A stretch of DNA of 27,718 nt from Methanotrichaceae archaeon (GCA_963754945.1 CAVWIG010000048.1:1-27718), one strand, 5' to 3'. Shown: positions 7,716 through 20,543, counted from the first letter of the stretch. Numbers and translations: made by a program. Notes: generated by a model from the sequence alone, not told the origin.

Positions 7716-8038
7716 CTGTCGGGAATTCTTTGATAAAACTGTAATTCTTAAATTCAGTGAACGTCGGCTTGTGCAAGGAGTATTGAATTCTTTGATCAAT
7801 TTTCCTATTGCGAATCAAATAAGCACTATTAATGACTAATAACCCTATGATTTATGTGATTGGCCAGTCTTTAATACAAGGAATCCCGCTTTGAAGGTAA
7901 ATCCATGTTTGGCACCTTCGCCTAAGAAGTTGACGCTCTTGTATAGGAACAGTTTATTGCCGCTTTGGAAAGGTGGTTTTAAATCAAAGGCCTGACAATA
8001 AAGGATGATTACTCCAATGAGCTGCAACTGGGCCAACC

Positions 8039-8719
8039 ATGAAGACCAAAAACATCCAGATTCTCATCTCGTGCCTTATCCTGGCCTCTTTCCTATTGGG
8101 AGCCTATCTTTACCCCATCATGCCCGAGCGGATAGCCTCTCACTGGGACGCGAGCGGCAGCGTTAACGGCTACATGCCCAAGCTCTTGGGACTCTTCTTT
8201 ATGCCGGTTATATCGACGGTTCTCTTTCTGGTCTTCCTGGTCATCCCCCGGATTGATCCTCTCAAGGAGAACATTGCGAAGTTCAGAGCCTACTTCGACC
8301 TGTTCATCCTGCTGCTCTTCGGCTTCCTGTTCTGCCTTTATCTGCTCACCATACTCTGGAACCTGGGCTACAGGTTCAACATCATCCAGCTCATGGCACC
8401 GGCCATCGGCCTGCTCATCTTTTACGCCGGAGTCATGACGGAGAACGCCAAGCAGAACTGGTTCATCGGCGTTAGAACTCCCTGGACTCTCTCCAGCGAG
8501 TGGGTGTGGAACAAGACCAACAGGCTGGCAGGCAAGCTCTTCAAGGCGGCAGGAATCCTGGCAATGCTAGGCGCTGTCTTTCCTGAGCACGCCATCTGGT
8601 TCATACTGGTGCCTGTTGTTCTGGCTGGGGTCTATCCAATCATATATTCCTATCAGGAGTACCAGCGGGAGATTAGGGGGGGAAAATCGGAGGAATCTTT
8701 AATAAAGGTATGTGTTTAG
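8039..8719 (+). CDS. SdpI-family / DUF1648 membrane immunity protein
   Basis: 'MPERIASHWDASGSVNGY' (DUF1648) and 'NWFIGVRTPWTLSSEWVWNKTNRLAG' (SdpI signature). Confidence 0.92.
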   Translation: MKTKNIQILISCLILASFLLGAYLYPIMPERIASHWDASGSVNGYMPKLLGLFFMPVISTVLFLVFLVIPRIDPLKENIAKFRAYFDLFILLLFGFLFCLYLLTILWNLGYRFNIIQLMAPAIGLLIFYAGVMTENAKQNWFIGVRTPWTLSSEWVWNKTNRLAGKLFKAAGILAMLGAVFPEHAIWFILVPVVLAGVYPIIYSYQEYQREIRGGKSEESLIKVCV

Positions 8720-9802: not shown

Positions 9803-10006
9803 CCGTAAAGGGCAGATGATAGGTGGCCAAAGAGCCACATTGCGAAAGTGCGAACTAACGCACCGAACTGGTAGGACCGGTCCGGGTCTTGGTCGAAGAT
9901 TGAATTGCTGGCGAATGTAAATGGCCCATGTCTTAGCTTGATCTCGTTTTTCTGTACTCCGACATGATCAAGACCAAGATTGATGGCCCCCAATATGTGC
10001 TAATTG

Positions 10007-10228
10007 ATGTCCTCCAAGGCTGATGCTAGAAGTACCGACGAAATAAGAAGGCAGGGAATAGAAGCCCTTGCAGCCGCCCTTGGGCCGGTTGACGCAGTTA
10101 GGTTCCTTCAAATCTTTGAGCTAGGAAAGGGCGATTACACTAAGGATCGTGCGAAATGGTTGGACATTGAGATCGATGAGGTAGTCCGCGAGATCGAGAA
10201 GAGAAAGAAGAGCGAAATAACCGAATAA
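10007..10228 (+). CDS. Small putative antitoxin-like protein
   Basis: 'EIRRQGIEALAAALGPVDAVRFL...GKGDYTKDR' resembles small proteins I recall next to PIN-domain toxins; no toxin adjacent here. Confidence 0.65.
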   Translation: MSSKADARSTDEIRRQGIEALAAALGPVDAVRFLQIFELGKGDYTKDRAKWLDIEIDEVVREIEKRKKSEITE

Positions 10229-10262
10229 GGTCTATCGTATCACGGTCCTGTTTCCTTTCTCC

Positions 10263-10430
10263 GGGTGTAAACGAGATCAACAGGCTGGCTGGCAAGCTCC
10301 TCAAGGCAGCCGGAATTCTGGCAATGCTAGGTGTAGCATTTTCCGAGCATGCCATCTGGTTCATACTTGTGCCTGTGATCATGGCTGGGTCTATCCAATC
10401 AAATAATCTTATCAGGAGTACCAAAGAGAG
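10263..10430 (+). pseudogene. Degenerate duplicate of the 3' end of the SdpI-like gene (8502-8670)
   Basis: Directly alignable, e.g. CAACAGGCTGGC, CTGGCAATGCTAGG, GCCATCTGGTTCATACT, GTCTATCCAATCA, TATCAGGAGTACCA; has a 1-bp deletion (GGG vs GGGG). Confidence 0.9.
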
Positions 10431-10501
10431 AACTGAGATGTGATCTGGGTCGTTGCTTCAGAATGTATTTAATCTAAAGGATTGATTTTTAATAGGGATT
10501 T

Positions 10502-10635
10502 ATGCTCAAACAGTTATCTCTTGCTCGAAGAAAGAAGAAAAGAAGATTGTCGGCCTTACTCCGGAGCAGCGGAGGCACCTTGAGCAGAGTCTGCAAGAAA
10601 ACGACGAATTGATGAGATGCCTGGCTGAGATGTGA
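10502..10635 (+). pseudogene. Possible small antitoxin remnant
   Basis: Frame AQTVISCSKKEEKKIVGLTPEQRRHLEQSLQENDELMRCLAEM*; joins ATG 10502 if one G is restored; C-terminus resembles short antitoxins preceding Doc/Fic toxins (inference). Confidence 0.4.
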
Positions 10636-10943
10636 CGGTTCAGACTCTTTGACATTTTCTCAGATCCATTGCTTTATTTGGTCAAGATTACAATCATAGA
10701 GCGCGATTCTGCGCAAAAAAGTCGCAGATCTCTTCTTTGTAGCCGGACATGCGTAGGCCGTTCGATCTCAAAATGATATCTGCAACCTGAAATCCAGTCC
10801 TCTTTTGACCGTCGTTGAAGGGATGAATCATAGGGGCAGGTCCACCTTGTTGAAGCGAAAATCTATAGCAAAAGATATAAAATGAAACTGAAATAAGACG
10901 TAATTGGAGATCTGATCTGTTGGCATCATCGATAAATCCTCCG

Positions 10944-13071
10944 ATGGCTTCAGGACCATATCGTTTTGAAGCTGGGCGTTTTGAGCATGAGAAGCCAACG
11001 CTTTTGGATTTGGGTCTACTACCCGTCGAAGATCTTGCAAAACTCGCACTGCGTGAAGGACAAAGGCCACGTCAATTATATCAGGTTCATAAGTGGTTTG
11101 CGCGACGGTTTGGTTGCGAGTTTCGGGCGCTTCTTACAGCTTCTGTGTTACCAGTAGAGTCTGATTTTTGGAGTGCTTACTATCAAGGTGTGGACTTAAG
11201 CGGATGTACTGTCCTTGACCCATTTGTAGGGGGCGGCACATCGATTATGGAGTCAATGCGTTTAGGTGCCAATGTGATCGGCATCGATATTGATTCTGTA
11301 GCTTGTGCAATAACTCGATTCGAGAGTCATATGGCTAAAACGCCCGATTTAATTCCTACTTTGGAGACGCTTAAAAATCAAGTTGGTAAAAAAATTGACT
11401 GCTATTATCGAACCCTCACTGAGGGCGGAGACGAGAGATCTGTCTTGCATTATTTTTGGGTTCAAATAGTAAGGTGCCGTCGTTGTAGCAGACTGGTTGA
11501 AGCACATCCTCATTACCGACTTGCCTATGAAGTAGAAGGCAATATACAATGGACTTTTTGTCCTGTATGTCATGAAATTTACGCAATTAATCGCAAAGAA
11601 AGCAATCTTTTTTGTAGAAAATGTGGAACCGAGACACGTATCGAAAACGGGCCAGCAAAAATGGGAAAGTTTACTTGTCCCCACTGCAACAGAGAAGAAC
11701 GCTTAATTGAAGTTGCTTCTCACGCAAATTGCCCACCGACATGGCATCTCTTCGCATTAGAAACTCTGGAGCCGCCCATTAAGAAAAGACTTCCAATGTC
11801 TCAAAGGTGTTTCCGACCTGGCGTCGAGATACGATCAATCAGTACTGGACATGGCGTCTTCTGCCTTAAAGAAAAGGCTAACTGAAGTGCCACATTGGAC
11901 TTCTACGCGAATTATTCCTGCAGAGGGAAGAGCTGATAATCGACTTTTAAAATATGGTTATAAATATTATAGAGATATTTTTAATGAGCGCCAATTGCTT
12001 CATTTATCCTATTTGGCAGAGGCGATTGACGGATTGAATGACCCACTGCGGGAAGCAATGGCAATAGCTTTTAGCGATCACTTAATAACCAATTGCATGA
12101 TGACAAGTTATGCATTCGGATGGCGTCGCCTTGTACCTCTGTTTTCATTAAGAGCTTTTAGACATGTGACTCGTCCTGTCGAACTAAATCCATGGATCGA
12201 TGGCACAGGAAGAGGTACATTTCCTAACGCCGTTCACCAGATACAGAGAGCTATTCAATGGTTGCATTCACCTAGAGAACCATTGGTGAATGGTGGTTTT
12301 GTTAATATAATGGACCATGATAATAAATTGGAGCCTCCGTTGTCCAAAGTCATTCAGGGAAATTCTCAGGATATCGGTTTCATTAATGATGCCACAATAG
12401 ATATTATATTGACCGATCCACCATATTTCGATAATATATCCTATTCTGAATTATCAGATTTCTTTTTGCCATGGCAACAGCTACTTGGCCTCGCCCCAAA
12501 AGATGGATCTAGTGAACTTGCTTTTCATGACAATCTATCTGCTAACGGAAGAAATGAGACATCAATAGGCAAATTTCAAGTTTCGTTGGGAAAATGTTTT
12601 TCGGAAATTGCCCGAGTAATTAAACCTAATGGCAAGGTAATTTTCACATATCAGCATAAAACCCCAGGAGCATGGGATGCTCTTGCATCGGCCATCAGTA
12701 GAAGTGGACTCAGACCAATCCAACTTTTTCCTTTGCTTGGGGATTGTTCCACGGGCTTACATAAACACGAAGGTAGCAGCAAATGGGATGCAGTATTCGT
12801 ACTTAAAAAGGATTCTGGATTAGGCGTTTCAGATTTGAGTATATCTGATGAGGCACTAGAATCTGCTCAAAGGCATCATTCATTATGGACGCAAAGACTA
12901 GAAAGAAACACAAATGGATTATTTAAAGATGCAGATCGGAAAAACTTTAATTACGCCTGCCTTGTTGCAAGCGCATTAGGCATGTTCCCAAATACTAATC
13001 AGGATCGCGGGCAGAAAATATCGTTAAAAAAATCCCTGGGGGACGTATTTAAACCTACCAGCAATAATTAG
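10944..13071 (+). pseudogene. COG1743/DUF1156-like Zn-ribbon DNA amino-methyltransferase, split by +1 frameshift at ~11820 (about 708 aa restored)
   Basis: 'YQVHKWFARR', motif I 'VLDPFVGGGT', four CxxC (CRRC, CPVC, CRKC, CPHC) in ORF 10920-11885; motif IV 'ILTDPPYFDNISYSELSDFF' in ORF 11851-13071; deleting one G from CCTGGCGTCG gives CFRPASRYDQSVLDMASSAL. Alternative start TTG 10920. Confidence 0.88.
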
Positions 13072-13073
13072 AC

Positions 13074-13078
13074 GGTGA
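13074..13078 (+). promoter_or_regulatory. Ribosome-binding site GGTGA for the nuclease-helicase gene
   Basis: TAG-ACGGTGAATAA-ATG; 11-bp intergenic gap. Confidence 0.6.
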
Positions 13079-14911
13079 ATAAATGCCACATCTAAGTAAG
13101 AAGGTAATCTCTCAATATCTCCGAACGGAATGCAAACGTCAATTAAGGCTAAATCTATCACCAGATAATCTCCAATATAAAGCAGAGAGAGATCGTCAAG
13201 ACATGCCGCCTAAGCAGCCTCCAAGACCAGGCCTAGAGTACTTTACTGAGGCAGGAGATGAGTGGCAAGCTGAAAAATTGAACGACTTAACACAGACTTT
13301 TGGCGCCGAAACGATAATAGGTCAACCATTTATTCACAGCTCCGGACAAACCAGATATCGGCCGATTTCGTTAGATGAAGCTTTATCAAGGTCCAGACCT
13401 AATCAGTTTATTGTAGAATCCGAATACAATATAGAGAATGAATTTGAGAGAGCATTCCAAATTAGCGATTACAGGGCAAGATTCCACCTAGATTACGCAA
13501 CGCTTCGCCCAGACATCATTGAGGTTCTGCCAGCGCGAACATTTTCGAGTTTGGTTACACCAGCCGGCGATTTAAGTCGTCTATCTGAAAGTGATGAGAG
13601 GCTGCAACTGAGAGTGGCTGAAATAAAGCTGACATCGGAACCTTCCGCCGGATATTTTTCTGAAGTAGCATACTACACAATGGCACTGGCTGGGTGGCTC
13701 GTAGACCACGATTTCAATGAGAGATTTTTGGTTGTTCCAGATGGCGTAATATGGCCTGGCTCTCATGAGGCATCAAATCTAACATTAATTCACAATAAAC
13801 TTACAAGAGATGGTCAGACTCCAACATTTTTGCAGCTTTTCAATGCCATGGAAAAGGATTTGGAGTCAGTTCCATTCGAAGTGTTTGTGTTCCGTATTAA
13901 GCGATTCCTTCAGGATGAAATACCTCAAATACTAAATACAGAATCTTGGCGCGAATTGGATTGGCATGTTGATAATAGATGCAAAGGTTGTGATTATCTC
14001 GGTTATCCTTGGAGAAATTCACAAGGACAATTAACAAATCATTGTGATCACTGTTGGCAGATGGCCGAAAGAGAAGACCATCTAAGCAGAGTGGCTTTCA
14101 TATCACGCGGCGCTAGATCATCACTTGAGAATCAGGGCGTCGATAATGTAGCTTCTTTGGCTCAATTCGCTAGCGACAGTCCTTTATTTGACTCTCACCA
14201 AGTTTTGCGAGCGACACGCACTGTAGTCTCTGGAAGAGCTACTTCGCTTCAAACCCAAAATTCTCGAATACCAGATGAAGCAGGGACATCTGCTATCATG
14301 CCAGGATGGGCGGATCTTAGGATATATCTTTCTGTAGACTTCGATGTGAGTAGTGCAATTACCTTTGCATTTGGGCTCAAGGTATTTGGCCGTGACACTC
14401 ACAGTACACCCCCACGCAGAAGAAGGATATTTATCGTGTATGAAAAAAACCTGCAGGCTGAACAGAGAGTATTGCTAGGATTCTTAGATCTGGTCAATTC
14501 GCTGCTAATTGAGGCAAGAGATCAAGATGCAAACACCAGTGTTCAATTTTATCTGTGGGATCAATTACAATACGATCATTTGACACGCGTAATAGGCAGG
14601 CACTTGCAAGCAATTTTAAATAATCATAGTATAAGCCACTTAGCTTGGCTCTTTCCCCCGGAAGAACTCTTATCTAATCCGAGAATGATCATGCGTCGTT
14701 CGACGATTACGGTTGTGCGTGATGTAATTCGTTCCATACTCGCAGCGCCGATGCCACATTATTATAGTCTATTAGGACTTGCCAGAATTTACCATAATCC
14801 GAACCTGCCAGAAAATATATCTCAGTTTAGTATTCATCCACTATTTGAAGATCCGCTTAGCGATCAAATTCCGTCAGAGCGAGCTCACGAAATCTGGTCA
14901 CACTCCACGTC

Positions 14912-14919
14912 GATAAATC
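14912..14919 (+). repeat. Left target-site duplication GATAAATC
   Basis: Identical to 16448-16455 and abuts the IR. Confidence 0.95.
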
Positions 14920-16447
14920 GTACTTGCTCAATAATCAGTTGATTTTACTAGCACTGAGAATGAGATCGGATAACTTTGGCATAGAATAACTATCTGAGAA
15001 TATATCATAAAGATATTTGTAAAAGCTTATTCCGAGCTTCCTGCAAGTATCGATTATAGAGAGCATGTTTTCCCATGCAAGCTTGCCGAGTTCACTTCTT
15101 GTTCCATAACTGATTTTTCTCTTGATCACACCTTCTCGCACAGCTATCTCTGCGAGATTGTTATGAAGCGGAACATTTGGAAAATCCAACACCAGCAACA
15201 ACTCTTGTTTCTTTTTCTTAGTCTTTGTAATGCGATCATCCAACGTCCCGTAACCAGTTACTGTCGAGAATATCGAATCAAACCTCTCCTGGACATACTT
15301 ACTCATAATTTTATTAGGATTCTCCTTATATTGTGTAAGCAATTCATAGAACTTCCAAAGCTCAGTTAAAAACATATTAAGAACCGACTTATGATGAATT
15401 AGAAAAGGATTCATCTTTTTGTAGTGTCGTATTTCATGTATCCAGCACAGAGCATGGTGTGACGATACATCTATGTACTGCCCGGCATCATCCGAGATAA
15501 TGGGTAAATCTATCTGCTCCTCATCATTTAGCCCAAAGAAATGTCTGATTGTATCACTTCCTTTGGTTTGCCTGATAAAGAAAGCACTAAAGAACTTGTT
15601 GCAGACAACGTGCAAATAATGGTTATTGCCTTTATGCCTCGCGCCTGTCTCATCAATGTTAAGATAATCAGCCCGATTCACACCAGTTTCAAATAAGGCC
15701 TGCTTCTCTATCGCATATGCATTGCTCTTTTCCTTGGTCAGTATGTTTGAGATCTCGCCTTCCGAGATTATTATGCCGATCTCTTCTAGGATCTTGTGGA
15801 TCCTATTCTCAGTAACCCTTCCCGCATAGTAGAGGTAAGCGATGAATGCTTTCAGATGACTTCCAAATTCCGTGTTCTTAAGGGACTCGGCAAGTTCTGC
15901 TTCATAGGTCTTTTTCAGGGACGGCGAATAGTAGCGTTCCAACCAATATTCCACGTTGTCGGTTTCAAATTTTATGTTCTGCTTTATGACCCGTCTATAG
16001 CCGTTATGCTTGGCATCATGTGGAAGAATCGATTTATCAATTTTAATGTATTCTGTCCTGTCGATTTTTATCTTTGGTTTCTTGCTATCTTTATGCCATT
16101 TTTTGGGTTTTTCCTTCGGCACATTAGCCTGGTATTCAGGATTGTCCGGCAGTATTTTAGGACGGCCTTTCTCACCTTTCATCCGGTTTATTTCATCCTT
16201 TAGCTGTTGATTGTCTTTGCGGAGTTCTTGATTTGACTGGGCTAATTGCTCTATTGTGCTTAGAAGCTGGAGGATCAATTCTTTCATCGCTTCTTTATCG
16301 TCGAAGTTGATCTTGTCTACATCGAGGTTGATTATGGCCTCGTGTATGATATCTGGCACAAACAAAATATTTTAGATATATGTATTAATAATTTTTGGTC
16401 CATGCACTCACTCGATTGGGGAATTCAACGTAATATTGAGCAAGTAC
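14920..16447 (-). mobile_element. IS66-family insertion sequence (single-ORF, ISBst12-like group), 1528 bp
   Basis: Terminal inverted repeats GTACTTGCTCAATA (14 bp perfect, 20/23 extended); 8-bp direct repeats GATAAATC at 14912-14919 and 16448-16455. Confidence 0.95.
14935..16365 (-). CDS. IS66-family DDE transposase
   Basis: N-terminal coiled coil; 'NIDETG', 'IISDD', 'LCWIHEIR', 'HNNLAEIAVREGVIKRKIS.GTRS' motifs; intact 476-aa frame, stop inside the IR. Confidence 0.93.
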   Translation of the reverse strand: MFVPDIIHEAIINLDVDKINFDDKEAMKELILQLLSTIEQLAQSNQELRKDNQQLKDEINRMKGEKGRPKILPDNPEYQANVPKEKPKKWHKDSKKPKIKIDRTEYIKIDKSILPHDAKHNGYRRVIKQNIKFETDNVEYWLERYYSPSLKKTYEAELAESLKNTEFGSHLKAFIAYLYYAGRVTENRIHKILEEIGIIISEGEISNILTKEKSNAYAIEKQALFETGVNRADYLNIDETGARHKGNNHYLHVVCNKFFSAFFIRQTKGSDTIRHFFGLNDEEQIDLPIISDDAGQYIDVSSHHALCWIHEIRHYKKMNPFLIHHKSVLNMFLTELWKFYELLTQYKENPNKIMSKYVQERFDSIFSTVTGYGTLDDRITKTKKKKQELLLVLDFPNVPLHNNLAEIAVREGVIKRKISYGTRSELGKLAWENMLSIIDTCRKLGISFYKYLYDIFSDSYSMPKLSDLILSASKIN

Positions 16448-16455
16448 GATAAATC
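16448..16455 (+). repeat. Right target-site duplication GATAAATC
   Basis: Identical to 14912-14919 and abuts the IR. Confidence 0.95.
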
Positions 16456-18938
16456 ATCCTTGGGAACAACAAATGAGTATCCTTGAGGAAACAATATCGA
16501 AAAGACTTACCGCGTTAGAAACAATTACACAAAGATTAGGTATGGATCTTGGACAAGCGCTTAACCAACAAGCACCTACAATAAATATCGGCCCACCTGA
16601 ACGAGAAAACCGATTGAGTGTTGATGGACAGCTCTGGTATGGTTTTGCAAAGCTAAATGAAGCGCTTAATGAGCTTGAAATTCACAAGATACGAGCAATG
16701 CCGCCACATGAAAGAGAGGCAAGATTCCATAGCGCGCGATTGATACGAAGGCTCATTGGACAAGAAGAATTAGATGCTATGGCCAGACTTTTTCCTGGAG
16801 TCGTAGCTAATTGCCGTGTTTATGAAATGAGGCCGGAGTCCTCAGAGGTAAAGCTGCATGAAGGTGATTTCAACTACGCTTTGTCTCCGGAAGATCAGCC
16901 GATTTTTCTAGACCAATCACTAATGTCAGTGACTCAGGGAACGCGGTTGCAACCTGATGATGGCAGAGGTTTCTACATTCGTATGGAGAACGTAACGTCA
17001 GTTACCGTAATGGCTATCGATAGAGAAAATCGTCTAATAGTTTTAAGGCCTAATCAGCGATGGCCAACCATGTTGGAAGACCTTGAGGAGCTAGGTTTAG
17101 CCAACTTTGCAGAGAATGTAATTCTTGATCCAACATATCACGATTTTTTTACCAAGAAGCTTTTGGCAACCCTTAAAGCGATCGGAAATCCTCCTTCTGC
17201 AAGAGACAATTCTTTGGTTCAAAAAGCTATGGGATTATCTGGCCGTGGTGCCCGTCGCACTCCGCATAATCCTCCCGAAGATTTCCTATGGAATGCTCCA
17301 AGAATGCATGAATTACTAATTGAACACGATTTAGAGACAACGAAAAACATCTTGGAGCAGCATGATATAAATTTAGATCCCAGCCAATGGACGGCTTGGA
17401 GGTCTGCATTATCTAGTCGCCTTCAACTCGTTTGGGGGCCACCAGGAACAGGCAAGAGCAGAACAGCGAGAGCTATTGTAGTTGGCGCTACAGTAGATGC
17501 ACACAACAGAGGAGAGCCAATCCGCATTCTCATCTGTGCTAATAATTACACCGCTATGGATAACGTTTTGAAAAATGTCTACGAATATATTCAGGAACTC
17601 CTACCGGATTCCGAATATGCAATTTTTCACCTTAGATCTTATTCGAGAACACCTCCAACGGATACCTCTTTGAGAAATATCGATCTTGAAATTAATGGAT
17701 ACAATCCATCTCCTGAGGTGATCGACCTTAAGTTACGTCTAGTTAGTTCCAGTGGAATCACGATTGTCGGAACAACGCCTTCACAAGTCCATAATTTGCT
17801 AACTCTTAATAACGGAAACGCTCAAGCAGAGCTCTTCGATTTAATACTAATAGACGAAGCATCACAAATGGATGTACAGTTTGCTATTCTCGCAATTAGT
17901 TCCTTGGCAACTAACGGTAGTCTGATACTCGCAGGTGACCCTAAACAACTTCCTCCAATTCACGCAGCCGAAGCACCTTTGAACTTGGAAAATGTAGTAG
18001 GATCGATATTTAATTTTTATAATTTAAATAGTAATATAGACTCCACTATGCTCAATGTGAATTATCGTTCGAACAAGATTTTGGTGGATTTTTCCCTGAA
18101 TGCGGGTTATGAGAGGGAATTGCATAGTTATTCTCCCCAACTCCGGCTGAATTTCGTAACACCACTTCCAGTTGATCGGCCACAAGACTGGCCTCAAGAC
18201 CTCTATTGGACAAACGAATGGGCCGACATACTGGACCCAGAGAAACCTGTAGCCTGTTTTGTTTACTCTGAAGGCAGTAGTAGTCAATGGAATCAATTTG
18301 AAGCGGATGCAGTCTCGTCCTTGGTTTTATTGCTTTATAATCGTCTTGGAAACAAGCTAGAAAATGAGAGAGATCCTAGCACAGGCGATATTATCCAACT
18401 AACCAATTCCTCTGCCTATTCGGAGTTGGATTTTTGGGAGAAAGGGATTGGCATTGTTACACCTCATCGGGCCCAACAAGGAAAGATCGTGAGCCGCTTG
18501 CAGCAGATATTTGGAAACATGGGCATCATAACGCCAGAAATGACTAATGCTATTCGCAATGCGGTAGACACAGTCGAGCGCTTTCAGGGACAACAGAGGG
18601 ACATTATTGTTGCCTCCTTTGCAATGAGCGATCCTGACGCAATTCGTGATGAAGATGAATTCCTGATGAGCTTAAATCGGTTCAATGTGATGGCTTCTAG
18701 AGCCAGAGCTAAGCTAATTGTGTTGATATCTCAACAGGTAGTGGATCATTTATCCGATGACCCCGATACTCTAAGAGACTCCAGATTATTGAAAAGCTAC
18801 GTAGAATCGTTTTGCCAAAGCACTCGCAGCATGAATCTAGGCTATTACCAAAACGGAAATGCAATAGAAGTGGAAGGCATTTTCAAGCATAGATGAATTA
18901 ATTTAAAACAATATAAAAGTTGAAAAGTAAAGGATAAC

Positions 18939-20543
18939 TCAGGCTTTGCGCTTCCGCTTCATCGCCTCCACAAACGCCAGGAACGGCGGCGACGGCCTGC
19001 CCGGACGGGACTTCATCTCCGGGTGGAACTGCGATCCAAAGAAGAAAGGATGCTCCGGTATCTCGCAGATCTCCATCAGGTCCATGTTGGTTCCCGAAAA
19101 GATCATGCCCTTCTCTTCGATCTGCGATATATATTCGGGGTTTACCTCGTACCTGTGCCTGTGGCGCTCGACGATGTCCGAGGTCCCATAGATCTTGTGG
19201 GCCATGCTGCCCTCTTTCAGGTGGGCCGGATAATTTCCGAGTCGCATGGTTGCTCCCATCTGCCTGATCTTCTCCTGCTCGGGCAAAAGCGCTATCACGG
19301 GATGAGGCGTGGGCCCGAACTCAGTGCTGTTGGCTCCCTCCAGGCCGCAGACATTTCTTGCGAACTCGACGACTGCAAGCTGCATCCCAAAGCAGATTCC
19401 CAAGAACGGTATCTTCCTCTCACGGGCGAAGGTGACGGCCTTGACCTTCCCCTCTGTGCCTCGCGAGCCAAAGCCGCCTGGCACAAGGATTCCGTCCATG
19501 TCCCGGAGCATCAGCTCTGGTGCGCCCGCTTCAAGGGCCTCTGAGTCCACCCAGGTGATCTCCGGCTTGACACCAGTCTCAATGCCTGCATGCTTCAAGG
19601 ACTCACGGATGGACAGGTAAGCGTCCTCCATTGGGTCGGCGCACTGAGATCCTATGGTGTACTTGCCGACGATTGCCACCCGGACTTTGCCCTCGACCTG
19701 GTCCATCCTCTTGACCAGCTCATCCCACTCCTGGCGTTCCTCAAGTGGCCACAGCCTCATGGCCTTCATGAGGTATGTGGTCAGACCTTGTTGCTCCAGC
19801 TCCAGAGGGACCTTGTAGATGTCGTCTGCGTCATGGCAGCTTATGACCGCCTCAACAGGCACGTCGCAGAAGTGGGCAATCTTGTGCTTCGTCTCATCGA
19901 GCAGGGGCTTCTCACACCGCACGGCTATCATGTCAGGGCGCAGTCCAAGCTCCCTCATCTCCTTGACGCTGTGTTGGGTAGGCTTTGTCTTCTGCTCGCC
20001 GTCCATGGTCGATGGGGCCAGGGTGACGTGGACGAAGAATATGTTCCCCGACTCCTCATGCCGAAGCTGCCTCATGGCCTCCAGGAATGGCATCGACTCG
20101 ATGTCGCCCACAGTGCCCCCGACCTCTATCAGGCAGATCTCGCAGCCGCCTTCCCGGGACACCTGGCGGATGCGCATCTTGATCTCCTCTGTGATGTGGG
20201 GGATGATCTGGACGGTCTTGCCTAGGTACTCGCCCCGGCGCTCCTTCTCGATGACTGTGCTGTACACCTTTCCGGTGGTGATGTTGTGGTCGCGGGTAAG
20301 CTCGACGTCCAAGAACCGCTCGTAGTTGCCCAGGTCCAGATCCACTTCGCCCCCATCCTTCAAGACGAAGACCTCTCCGTGCTGGAACGGGCTCATCAGC
20401 CCTGCGTCTATGTTGATGTACGGATCTATCTTTATGGCCGTTACTTTATATCCCCTGTTCATGAGCAGCCTGCCGATTGATGCGGCAGTAATGCCTTTTC
20501 CGAGGCCGCTCATGACCCCGCCTGTGACCACAATATATCTCAT
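18939..20543 (-). CDS. pyrG: CTP synthase
   Basis: '[13 protein letters not shown]', 'KIDPYIN', 'KTKPTQHSV', 'GICFGMQ', '[10 protein letters not shown]', 'QFHPE'. Confidence 0.99.

Follow-up and report, generated by a model that had tools for sequence, protein, structure and literature searches.

A decayed, putative two-gene restriction-modification-like module pairing a DUF1156-related methyltransferase with a predicted Cas4-like nuclease-SF1B helicase in a Methanotrichaceae archaeon

The stretch of DNA analyzed here (henceforth the window) is an entire 27.7-kb contig of a Methanotrichaceae archaeon (GCA_963754945.1, CAVWIG010000048.1:1-27718; source assembly 2.97 Mb), which carries two co-oriented genes coding for a predicted DNA methyltransferase (MT) and a predicted nuclease-helicase (NH) that we consider together as a candidate restriction-modification (RM)-like defense module. 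The genes lie in an island (~10.2-18.9 kb) with a G+C content of 0.39-0.45, as against 0.50-0.58 beyond pyrG on the right side, whose large open reading frames (ORFs) are 10920..11885 (+, frame 3), 11851..13071 (+, frame 1), 13083..14942 (+), 14935..16365 (-) and 16473..18896 (+). The first two of these are the parts of a frame-broken MT, the third and the fifth are the halves of an NH split by an insertion sequence (IS), and the fourth is the transposase of that element; none of the island ORFs codes for an SNF2 or DUF499 protein. The stop codon of MT and the start codon of NH are separated by an 11-nt gap with a GGTGA motif. The initial annotation of this locus, made from the sequence alone, had described just such an AT-rich island, with two genes 11 bp apart behind a GGTGA ribosome-binding site (RBS), no DUF499 or SNF2 partner, and toxin-antitoxin debris and the 3' end of pyrG as its flanks; all of this is borne out by the sequence, the debris being consistent with a weak Fic/DOC remnant (Table 1).

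The repaired MT is a protein of ~710 aa; its homologues, of 713-723 aa, can be aligned over their whole length with the ORFs 10920/10944..11885 and 11851..13071. An HKWFARR motif, the S-adenosylmethionine (SAM) motif I DPFVGGGT, four CxxC pairs and the catalytic motif IV DPPY are near-invariant in 24 aligned MT sequences and are all kept in the window, with SAM motif I and motif IV placing the protein, at the sequence level, among the N6/N4 amino-methyltransferases. We predict a helical motif of the DUF1156 type at the N-terminus and a Rossmann core interrupted by a large insert that contains two 4-Cys zinc ribbons, and the DPPY signature predicts N6-adenine methylation. The 5' part of MT stays below the Pfam cut-offs for N6_N4_Mtase (1.2e-5, 25.8 bits vs 26.7) and DUF1156 (0.0076, 16.8 bits vs 24), the 3' part matches the PADLOC models HmaB (3.8e-14), PglXI (7.6e-13) and DUF1156_MTase (1.9e-10), and the NCBIfam model DUF1156_antiphage (NF042963) gives at best 2e-16 (59.3 and 20.6 bits vs a cut-off of 1000). 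Among 12 members of the MT family, PF01555 is above its cut-off of 26.7 in seven and PF06634 (DUF1156) in two (L119 and L098), while the orthologue in Rubrobacter xylanophilus bears a COG1743 name in GenBank and the name "DUF1156 domain-containing protein" in RefSeq. Since the system-level matches remain well below membership and DUF1156 is reached by two of 12 members, MT is best described, as far as its sequence goes, as a shorter cousin of the COG1743/DUF1156 methylases. Its earlier designation as a zinc-ribbon COG1743 methyltransferase thus holds for its kinship with the DUF1156 methylases and for the CxxC pairs, but not for membership, its score being under the DUF1156 threshold (16.8 vs 24 bits).

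Compared with its homologues, the MT gene has an extra base within CCTGGCG, which breaks its reading frame. The homologue P0121, which is 70% identical to the 3' part of MT (68-69% by tblastn), reads RCFRPASDFDQS at the point where the window switches frame, and ~91%-identical contigs from two studies (runs X3 and X4) have one letter fewer at 11821; the single frameshift claimed at the outset is thus supported from both sides. Two further runs (X1 and X2) yielded short contigs that are 99-100% identical to the window, none of which spans 11821, so that the extra base may be either a genuine mutation or an assembly error; no sequencing run contained more than 0.30 of the words. Programmed frameshifting was considered and rejected, as the sequence is not a slippery one and the extra base is missing from the ~91%-identical X3/X4 contigs.

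Once the IS is removed, NH is a single polypeptide of ~1425 aa, in which all nuclease and helicase motifs are intact. Its C-terminal half matches Pfam AAA_11 (4.4e-20, 73 bits) and AAA_12 (1.1e-20, 74.5 bits; cut-off 27), and a profile of the NH alignment retrieves mouse Dna2 from the PDB (5eax, 7e-34) along with Upf1/NAM7, IGHMBP2 and Sen1; because of these matches, we assign this half at the sequence level to superfamily 1B (SF1B) as a Dna2/Upf1-like helicase. Some NH homologues additionally give marginal matches to ResIII (E 0.003-0.036). The N-terminal half has no match in Pfam, in PADLOC (E<=0.01) or among the PDB sequences. However, PD144, E180-x-K182 and the cysteines C17, C300, C303 and C324 are invariant or nearly so across the NH family alignments. 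The TM0106 RecB-like model TIGR03491 matches the window's NH at 14040-14192 (5.2e-4, 19 bits vs a cut-off of 97) and its relatives more strongly (3.9e-8 to 1.1e-13), with a family range of 19-52 bits that lies throughout far below 97. PDDEXK_1 and Cas4 models match distant NH relatives, PDDEXK_1 being above its cut-off in L003 and L005 only, and the ESM Atlas look-alikes of residues 1-620 of the homologue P0028 belong to PDDEXK_1, Cas4 and RNase_H_2 clusters, which we treat as a lead only. The NH N-terminus is thus probably a nuclease of the Cas4/RecB PD-(D/E)xK type, whose cysteines would probably bind an Fe-S cluster. Of the original description of this partner, the SF1 motifs of the Dna2/Upf1 type are upheld by the Dna2, AAA_11 and AAA_12 matches, and the RecB/Cas4-like nuclease agrees with the PD..ExK motif and the four conserved cysteines. 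Between the nuclease and the helicase lie ~600 residues without an assigned fold. The Atlas similarity had hinted at an RNase_H_2 domain (PF13482) at residues ~400-610, a candidate that we dropped as the Pfam model found no match there at E<=0.01 in five genomes or at E<=0.05 in 19 proteins. In comparison with the ~91%-identical contigs, the window also lacks a base at 14800 and gains one at 14810, a compensating pair of changes that alters ~3 NH codons just upstream of the IS.

The element that splits NH belongs to the IS66 family by its DDE_Tnp_IS66 transposase (2.1e-22, 80.3 bits vs a cut-off of 23.1), its terminal inverted repeats, which begin GTACTTGCTCAATA, and its 8-bp target-site duplication, a length typical of IS66; the NCBIfam model transpos_IS66 gives 8.8e-44 and 150 bits, under its cut-off of 180. 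Removal of the IS with one copy of the repeat restores the text SINHPWEQQM in frame with the ATG at 16473, and the identical text is found in P0001, a 1384-aa metagenome protein that is 92% identical over the N-terminal part. The X3/X4 contigs present the empty site, joining 14910 to 16447 and skipping 1536 nt, with nine letters that fit either side of the joint. The repeats, the transposase, the in-frame repair and this empty site together confirm that one IS splits the partner gene, as had been supposed. Six further copies over bases 1-1528, plus one from base 14, occur in the same genome at ~100% identity, and because of these near-identical copies the IS appears to have been active recently in this genome; it is probably the cause of many of the assembly breaks. 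The copies are on contigs C10, C13, C17 (three) and C46, and further contig-end fragments are ~100% identical. With NH split by the IS and the frame of MT broken, the module as it reads in this window cannot work, and the pair is thus predicted to be inactive here.

Table 1. Positions of the MT and NH genes, their motifs and the surrounding features in the window
Feature	Position	Strand	Evidence or remark
MT 5' part	10944..11820	+	frame 3; ORF list, tblastn of P0121/P0122/P0125
MT HKWFARR motif	11088-11108	+	near-invariant alignment columns
MT SAM motif I DPFVGGGT	11217-11240	+	near-invariant alignment columns
MT four CxxC pairs	11475-11486, 11559-11570, 11613-11624, 11676-11687	+	near-invariant columns
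Frameshift site	11819..11822	+	one extra base in CCTGGCG vs homologues
MT 3' part	11821..13071	+	frame 1; stop TAG 13069-13071
MT catalytic motif IV DPPY	12415-12426	+	near-invariant alignment columns
GGTGA Shine-Dalgarno-like motif	13074..13078	+	inside 11-nt gap between MT stop and NH ATG 13083
NH 5' part	13083..14919	+	ORF 13083..14942; homologue alignments
NH C17	13122-13142 region	+	conserved in NH alignments
NH RPD	13506-13526	+	invariant P143-D144
NH E-I-K	13617-13634	+	E180-x-K182, K182 invariant
NH CxxC	13977-14003	+	C300/C303
NH HCDHC	14040-14054	+	conserved in NH alignments
NH invariant D421 and D493	14331-14345, 14550-14561	+	NH alignments
NH 3' part: linker region and SF1B helicase (predicted)	16456..18896	+	ORF 16473..18896
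NH Walker A GPPGTGKS	17436-17459	+	
NH Walker B LIDEASQ	17847-17867	+	
NH TPHRAQQ	18459-18479	+	
NH RFQGQQRD	18579-18602	+	
IS66-family element, 1528 bp	14920..16447	-	inverted repeats, transposase ORF 14935..16365
Target-site duplication, left copy GATAAATC	14912..14919	.	8 bp
Target-site duplication, right copy GATAAATC	16448..16455	.	8 bp
pyrG	18939..20543	-	convergent with NH
Fic/DOC remnant	10697-11071	-	E 0.006, weak; last 20 profile positions only; stop-to-stop frame with HPFNDGQKRTG
SdpI/YfhL-family C-terminal fragment, second partial copy	10180-10440	+	Pfam SdpI 0.0015

Homologues of both genes are numerous, with 459 longer homologues (~1430 aa) collected for the NH family and 392 for the MT family; an exhaustive search yielded 486 NH representatives at 50% identity, mostly of 1400-1500 aa (204 at E<=1e-30), which span archaea and at least six bacterial phyla. 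A metagenome scan seeded with the NH N-terminal domain only gave 80 loci, in which MT is directly upstream on the same strand in 47, directly downstream on the same strand in five and nearby on the opposite strand in three; in a separate contig scan with the full-length NH alignment, which fell on generic helicase motifs, seven of 55 loci (L001-L007) proved related over the N-terminal half and were kept, and 48 that matched by the helicase part only were set aside. Dereplication at 95% nucleotide identity left 57 groups, and among the 48 that have >=35% identity to the window, MT is upstream in 33, downstream in four, on the opposite strand in three and absent in one, five being half decidable and two not decidable. 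MT is thus part of the locus in 40 of the 41 decidable groups and adjacent on the same strand in 37, the tblastn matches being 15-241 nt apart. The single group without it (L078) has instead another PF01555 DNA methylase (1.8e-45), which is convergent and ~400 nt downstream. MT and NH distances are correlated across 32 dereplicated loci (Mantel r = 0.87, with 0 of 2000 permutations as high); the search for NH segments that co-vary with MT more than the proteins do as a whole (partial r at most 0.30), or that are conserved only in the MT-linked clade, yielded no usable candidate. There is no third conserved gene, the commonest other neighbor family being present in nine of 87 loci. Both genes are single long ORFs in 38 of the 44 fully covered loci, and this, along with the catalytic motifs kept in the window, suggests purifying selection on the pair, which we count in support of its being a functional unit. 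Individual examples are the NH (ABG04749.1) and MT (ABG04750.1) of R. xylanophilus, which have consecutive accessions, and L007, a Competibacteraceae metagenome-assembled genome, in which MT is followed by NH.

Comparison with known systems does not provide a name for this pair. Neither MT nor NH reached any system model in PADLOC-DB 2.0.0 (2023) or NCBIfam 20.0 (2026), and we found no description of the pair in the literature, although supplementary tables to PMC12839542 and PMC7641849, or to the preprints on YprA and Nhi, might list it; the initial annotation had likewise been unable to match it to a named system. The named defense helicases match the helicase core of NH only, as with DpdJ (1e-44, profile positions 41-480 of 2112) and MkoA (1e-29), and none extends to full length: PLuB_AAA scores 89.5 bits against 999, ProA scores 57.7 against 1500, and the Mokosh MkoA-MkoC and DpdJ models are confined to the core. 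Likewise, the TM0106 family resembles the NH nuclease part, yet falls short of its cut-off throughout, as described above.

The nearest relatives on the methylase side are the systems of COG1743/DUF1156 methylases, which, according to PMC7641849 and PMC12839542, usually have a DUF499 ATPase and an SNF2 helicase as partners; this COG1743-DUF499-SNF2 combination is the "Hma" of PADLOC and the "Type-1/2/3 BR systems" of PMC12839542, and its operon is noted in PMC7641849. As far as these sources describe them, the two share an RM-like logic with a helicase-nuclease effector (PMC7641849, PMC12839542). The methylases are of the same broad kind, with an HxW(F/W)ARR helical motif, an N6-type core, a nested 4-Cys zinc-finger insert and DPPY. 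In contrast, MT is ~720 aa as against ~950 aa and under the Pfam and NCBIfam DUF1156 cut-offs, the effector is predicted to be an SF1B helicase of the Dna2/Upf1 type with an N-terminal Cas4-like nuclease, and DUF499 and SNF2 are absent. The missing partners had already been pointed out for the window, and they are not conserved genes in the 80 related loci either: an SNF2 gene was seen in L130 only, beside a true DUF1156 gene 6 kb away. The arrangement also recalls Type III RM, which likewise has two tightly coupled genes, the methylase gene preceding that of an ATP-dependent helicase-nuclease, and lacks a separate specificity subunit; here, the coupling takes the form of the 11-nt gap with its RBS. 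The Res subunit of Type III systems is an SF2 helicase with a C-terminal nuclease, whereas NH is predicted to have an SF1B motor and to carry its nuclease, along with a Cys cluster, at the N-terminus, so that NH falls outside Res.

On the effector side, the closest parallel is Nhi of Staphylococcus, which is presented as a single protein that joins a PD-(D/E)xK nuclease at its N-terminus to an SF1B helicase structurally related to Upf1 and Dna2, among others, and that has proven antiphage activity (10.1101/776245). NH likewise appears to combine a nuclease and an SF1B helicase in one polypeptide, but it differs by its four conserved cysteines and ~600 extra residues; no Nhi-named model was among the PADLOC/NCBIfam matches of NH, although the library may not contain one. 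A further difference is that Nhi, as presented there, acts alone without a dedicated methylase (10.1101/776245), and this raises the alternative that NH is a self-sufficient defense nuclease-helicase of the same kind, which would sense free ends or replication intermediates, with the methylase as separate traveling cargo (an orphan, an anti-restriction factor or half of another RM system). The distant relatives L004, L145 and L146 (and L005 on its upstream side), which have no DNA methylase nearby, and L085, which has two methylases around NH, would fit such an enzyme. So would L098 and L100, in which a divergent zinc-ribbon MT belongs to a convergent operon of its own, resembling a usual Type II pair, with a 380-aa ORF lying between it and NH (L098:5693-6835(-) and L100:14293-15435(-)); this ORF matches no Pfam or PADLOC family, has a PD..ExK-like stretch (PDF...EAK) and may encode a classical Type II endonuclease that works with a member of the same methylase family. 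Nevertheless, the presence of MT in 40 of 41 decidable groups, its close same-strand adjacency and the co-variation of MT and NH distances are difficult to reconcile with cargo, another DNA methylase takes its place where the zinc-ribbon MT is missing, and most loci have no third gene that could be MT's own nuclease. Hence, we regard a methylase-independent NH as unlikely.

The neighbors of the pair include BREX (BrxL, BrxA, PglZ, BrxHI/II), Hachiman, Wadjet, Azaca, Type I/IIG/III RM and PD-T4-6 genes and integrases, with a PADLOC match at E<=1e-15 for 23 of 58 neighbor representatives. The initial annotation had suggested examining whether orthologues of the two genes are recurrently adjacent and enriched in defense islands; they are recurrently adjacent, and they do lie among known defense genes. 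The distribution of NH is sporadic: it was not found in two genomes of the same genus and 58 further genomes of the same family, nor across 100 related genomes, save for one weak match. Because its identity is still 50-60% between archaea, Actinomycetota, Cyanobacteriota, Planctomycetota, Chloroflexota and Spirochaetota, the sequences point to horizontal spread. In the window itself, two same-genus genomes are collinear until the end of pyrG and divergent beyond it, the SdpI gene being ~2 kb away in one of them vs 10.2 kb in the window, and the module occupies, as an acquired island, a spot that varies between genomes.

Such mobility is also what would be expected if the pair were a selfish addiction module, or a replication or transfer module of mobile elements that is not primarily antiviral, with NH killing cells that lose the element together with the methylase. 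Integrases are repeatedly encoded close to the pair (cluster 3 in eight loci; Phage_integrase), relatives are found on conjugative plasmids, the sporadic distribution and the variable spot of the island are in keeping with it, and post-segregational killing is established for some Type II RM systems. However, addiction does not exclude defense, as classical RM systems do both; moreover, the neighbors are mostly defense genes with few transfer or replication genes, and only five plasmid records and one phage record were matched, all at <60% identity. A primarily selfish role is, on balance, quite improbable.

Another possibility is that NH is a housekeeping enzyme of DNA repair or replication, engaged in Dna2/AddAB-like end processing, beside which an epigenetic methylase regulator happens to lie. 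The best solved relatives of its helicase half are Dna2, Upf1, IGHMBP2 and Sen1, many homologues are annotated by the Joint Genome Institute (JGI) as "DNA replication ATP-dependent helicase Dna2", and NH shares with Dna2 the order of a nuclease followed by an SF1B helicase and a Cys cluster bracketing the nuclease, besides the profile match of 7e-34. Yet the N-terminal half of NH has no sequence match to Dna2, and NH is sporadic, island-borne and methylase-linked. Its near absence from the 100 related genomes, the 50-60% identity across domains and phyla that marks horizontal spread, and the low-G+C island with an inactivated copy and a defense-island context render a housekeeping role very improbable.

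The methylase partner has been exchanged in parts of the NH tree (FastTree; the long branches L003, L004 and L005 are placed with uncertainty). A sister clade of ~31%-identical NH proteins (seven rows, support 100) is always found with a convergent ~380-aa PF01555 methylase bearing SPPY, the 3' ends of the two genes overlapping; on a Rhizobium plasmid, such a pair is annotated as "AAA family ATPase" and "site-specific DNA-methyltransferase". L078, with its different methylase, falls inside the main NH clade, and a D12-class methylase begins 12 nt after the distant NH of L003. An NH relative with 33-36% identity is also found in L138, the Methylorubrum extorquens AM1 megaplasmid (NC_012811.1, from 770010-771930), where it reads as two tblastn pieces abutting at 7855/7857, a possible frame break; a query-based search found neither the zinc-ribbon nor the 380-aa methylase within 7 kb on either side.

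We thus read the locus, with a probability of roughly 0.7, as a decayed copy of a horizontally mobile two-gene RM-like defense module with NH as its restriction subunit. This reading draws on the domain content, the intact catalytic motifs, the strict adjacency, the co-divergence, the defense-island context, the sporadic distribution and the replacement of one methylase by another, each of which is directly supported by the data above. In the proposed mechanism, MT would mark the host's own DNA, while NH would load on DNA lacking the mark, translocate along or unwind it with ATP and degrade it; methylation would thus protect, with NH cleaving unmethylated DNA after either reading the mark itself or being aimed by the methylase. 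A modification-dependent (Type IV-like) action of NH was rejected, as the linked methylase would then be self-toxic.

Several observations weigh against this assignment of NH as a restriction subunit. Related loci share ancestry, so the neighborhood counts and the Mantel test overstate independence, and the defense-neighbor count (23 of 58) stands without a control set. The methylase-free relatives L004, L145 and L146 are at 20-25% NH identity, and L005 has no DNA methylase on its upstream side, its contig ending after the gene; because of such distant relatives, NH-type enzymes apparently can exist without a protecting methylase, and gating by methylation need not be intrinsic to them. By their motifs (DPPY or DPPF vs SPPY), the partner methylases are predicted to differ in their chemistry, which is hard to square with one simple mark read-out, and neither MT nor NH has a hypervariable target-recognition stretch of the Type I/III kind. 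Finally, the partner methylase of L131 (L131:14252-15399(-)) is split into ORFs of 263 and 132 aa beside a whole NH and, if real rather than an assembly error, this speaks against strict toxicity of NH without its methylase.

A more specific version of the restriction-subunit reading, which we put forward tentatively and hold to be doubtful, is that NH is an SF1B Dna2-like "shredder" that threads single-stranded DNA and is checked by amino-methylated bases in general (N6-methyladenine or N4-methylcytosine, m6A/m4C) rather than by one recognition sequence, and would hence be a fourth kind of ATP-dependent restriction motor. The self signal would then be methylation read during translocation, somewhat like Chi on RecBCD. 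This would account for the swaps among methylases (zinc-ribbon DUF1156-like, two PF01555 types and the D12 class) as well as for the want of a variable target-recognition domain in either protein.

Of the surroundings, the weak Fic/DOC remnant overlaps the start region of MT. The SdpI fragment lies ~1.5 kb downstream of the intact gene (8039-8719), at the left edge of the low-G+C island, and may be a scar of insertion or recombination at a variable spot; the small ORFs 10004-10228 and 10486-10635 are without a family match. Further left, the segment 9188-9802 (+) joins an acylphosphatase domain (7.2e-19) to a C-terminal tail that has repeated (D/E)MREGF units and coiled-coil-like sequence. The window contig also codes for the topoisomerase VI A and B subunits.

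For this genome, the locus would record ordinary decay, in which an active IS and a point indel killed an acquired defense island, whereas an intact pair is present in the cultured and non-pathogenic bacterium R. xylanophilus (ABG04749.1/ABG04750.1). The apparent exchange of partner methylases raises the question of how a conserved nuclease-helicase reads self marks. The size of the NH family, with 486 representatives at 50% identity, and its spread across phyla indicate a gap in the current catalogues of defense systems. To our knowledge, SF2 motors drive all of the ATP-dependent restriction types described so far, as well as the known COG1743 systems. If the proposed function is true, the pair would add to the RM repertoire a new restriction-subunit architecture, in which a Cas4-like nuclease is combined with an SF1B helicase of the Dna2/Upf1 type.

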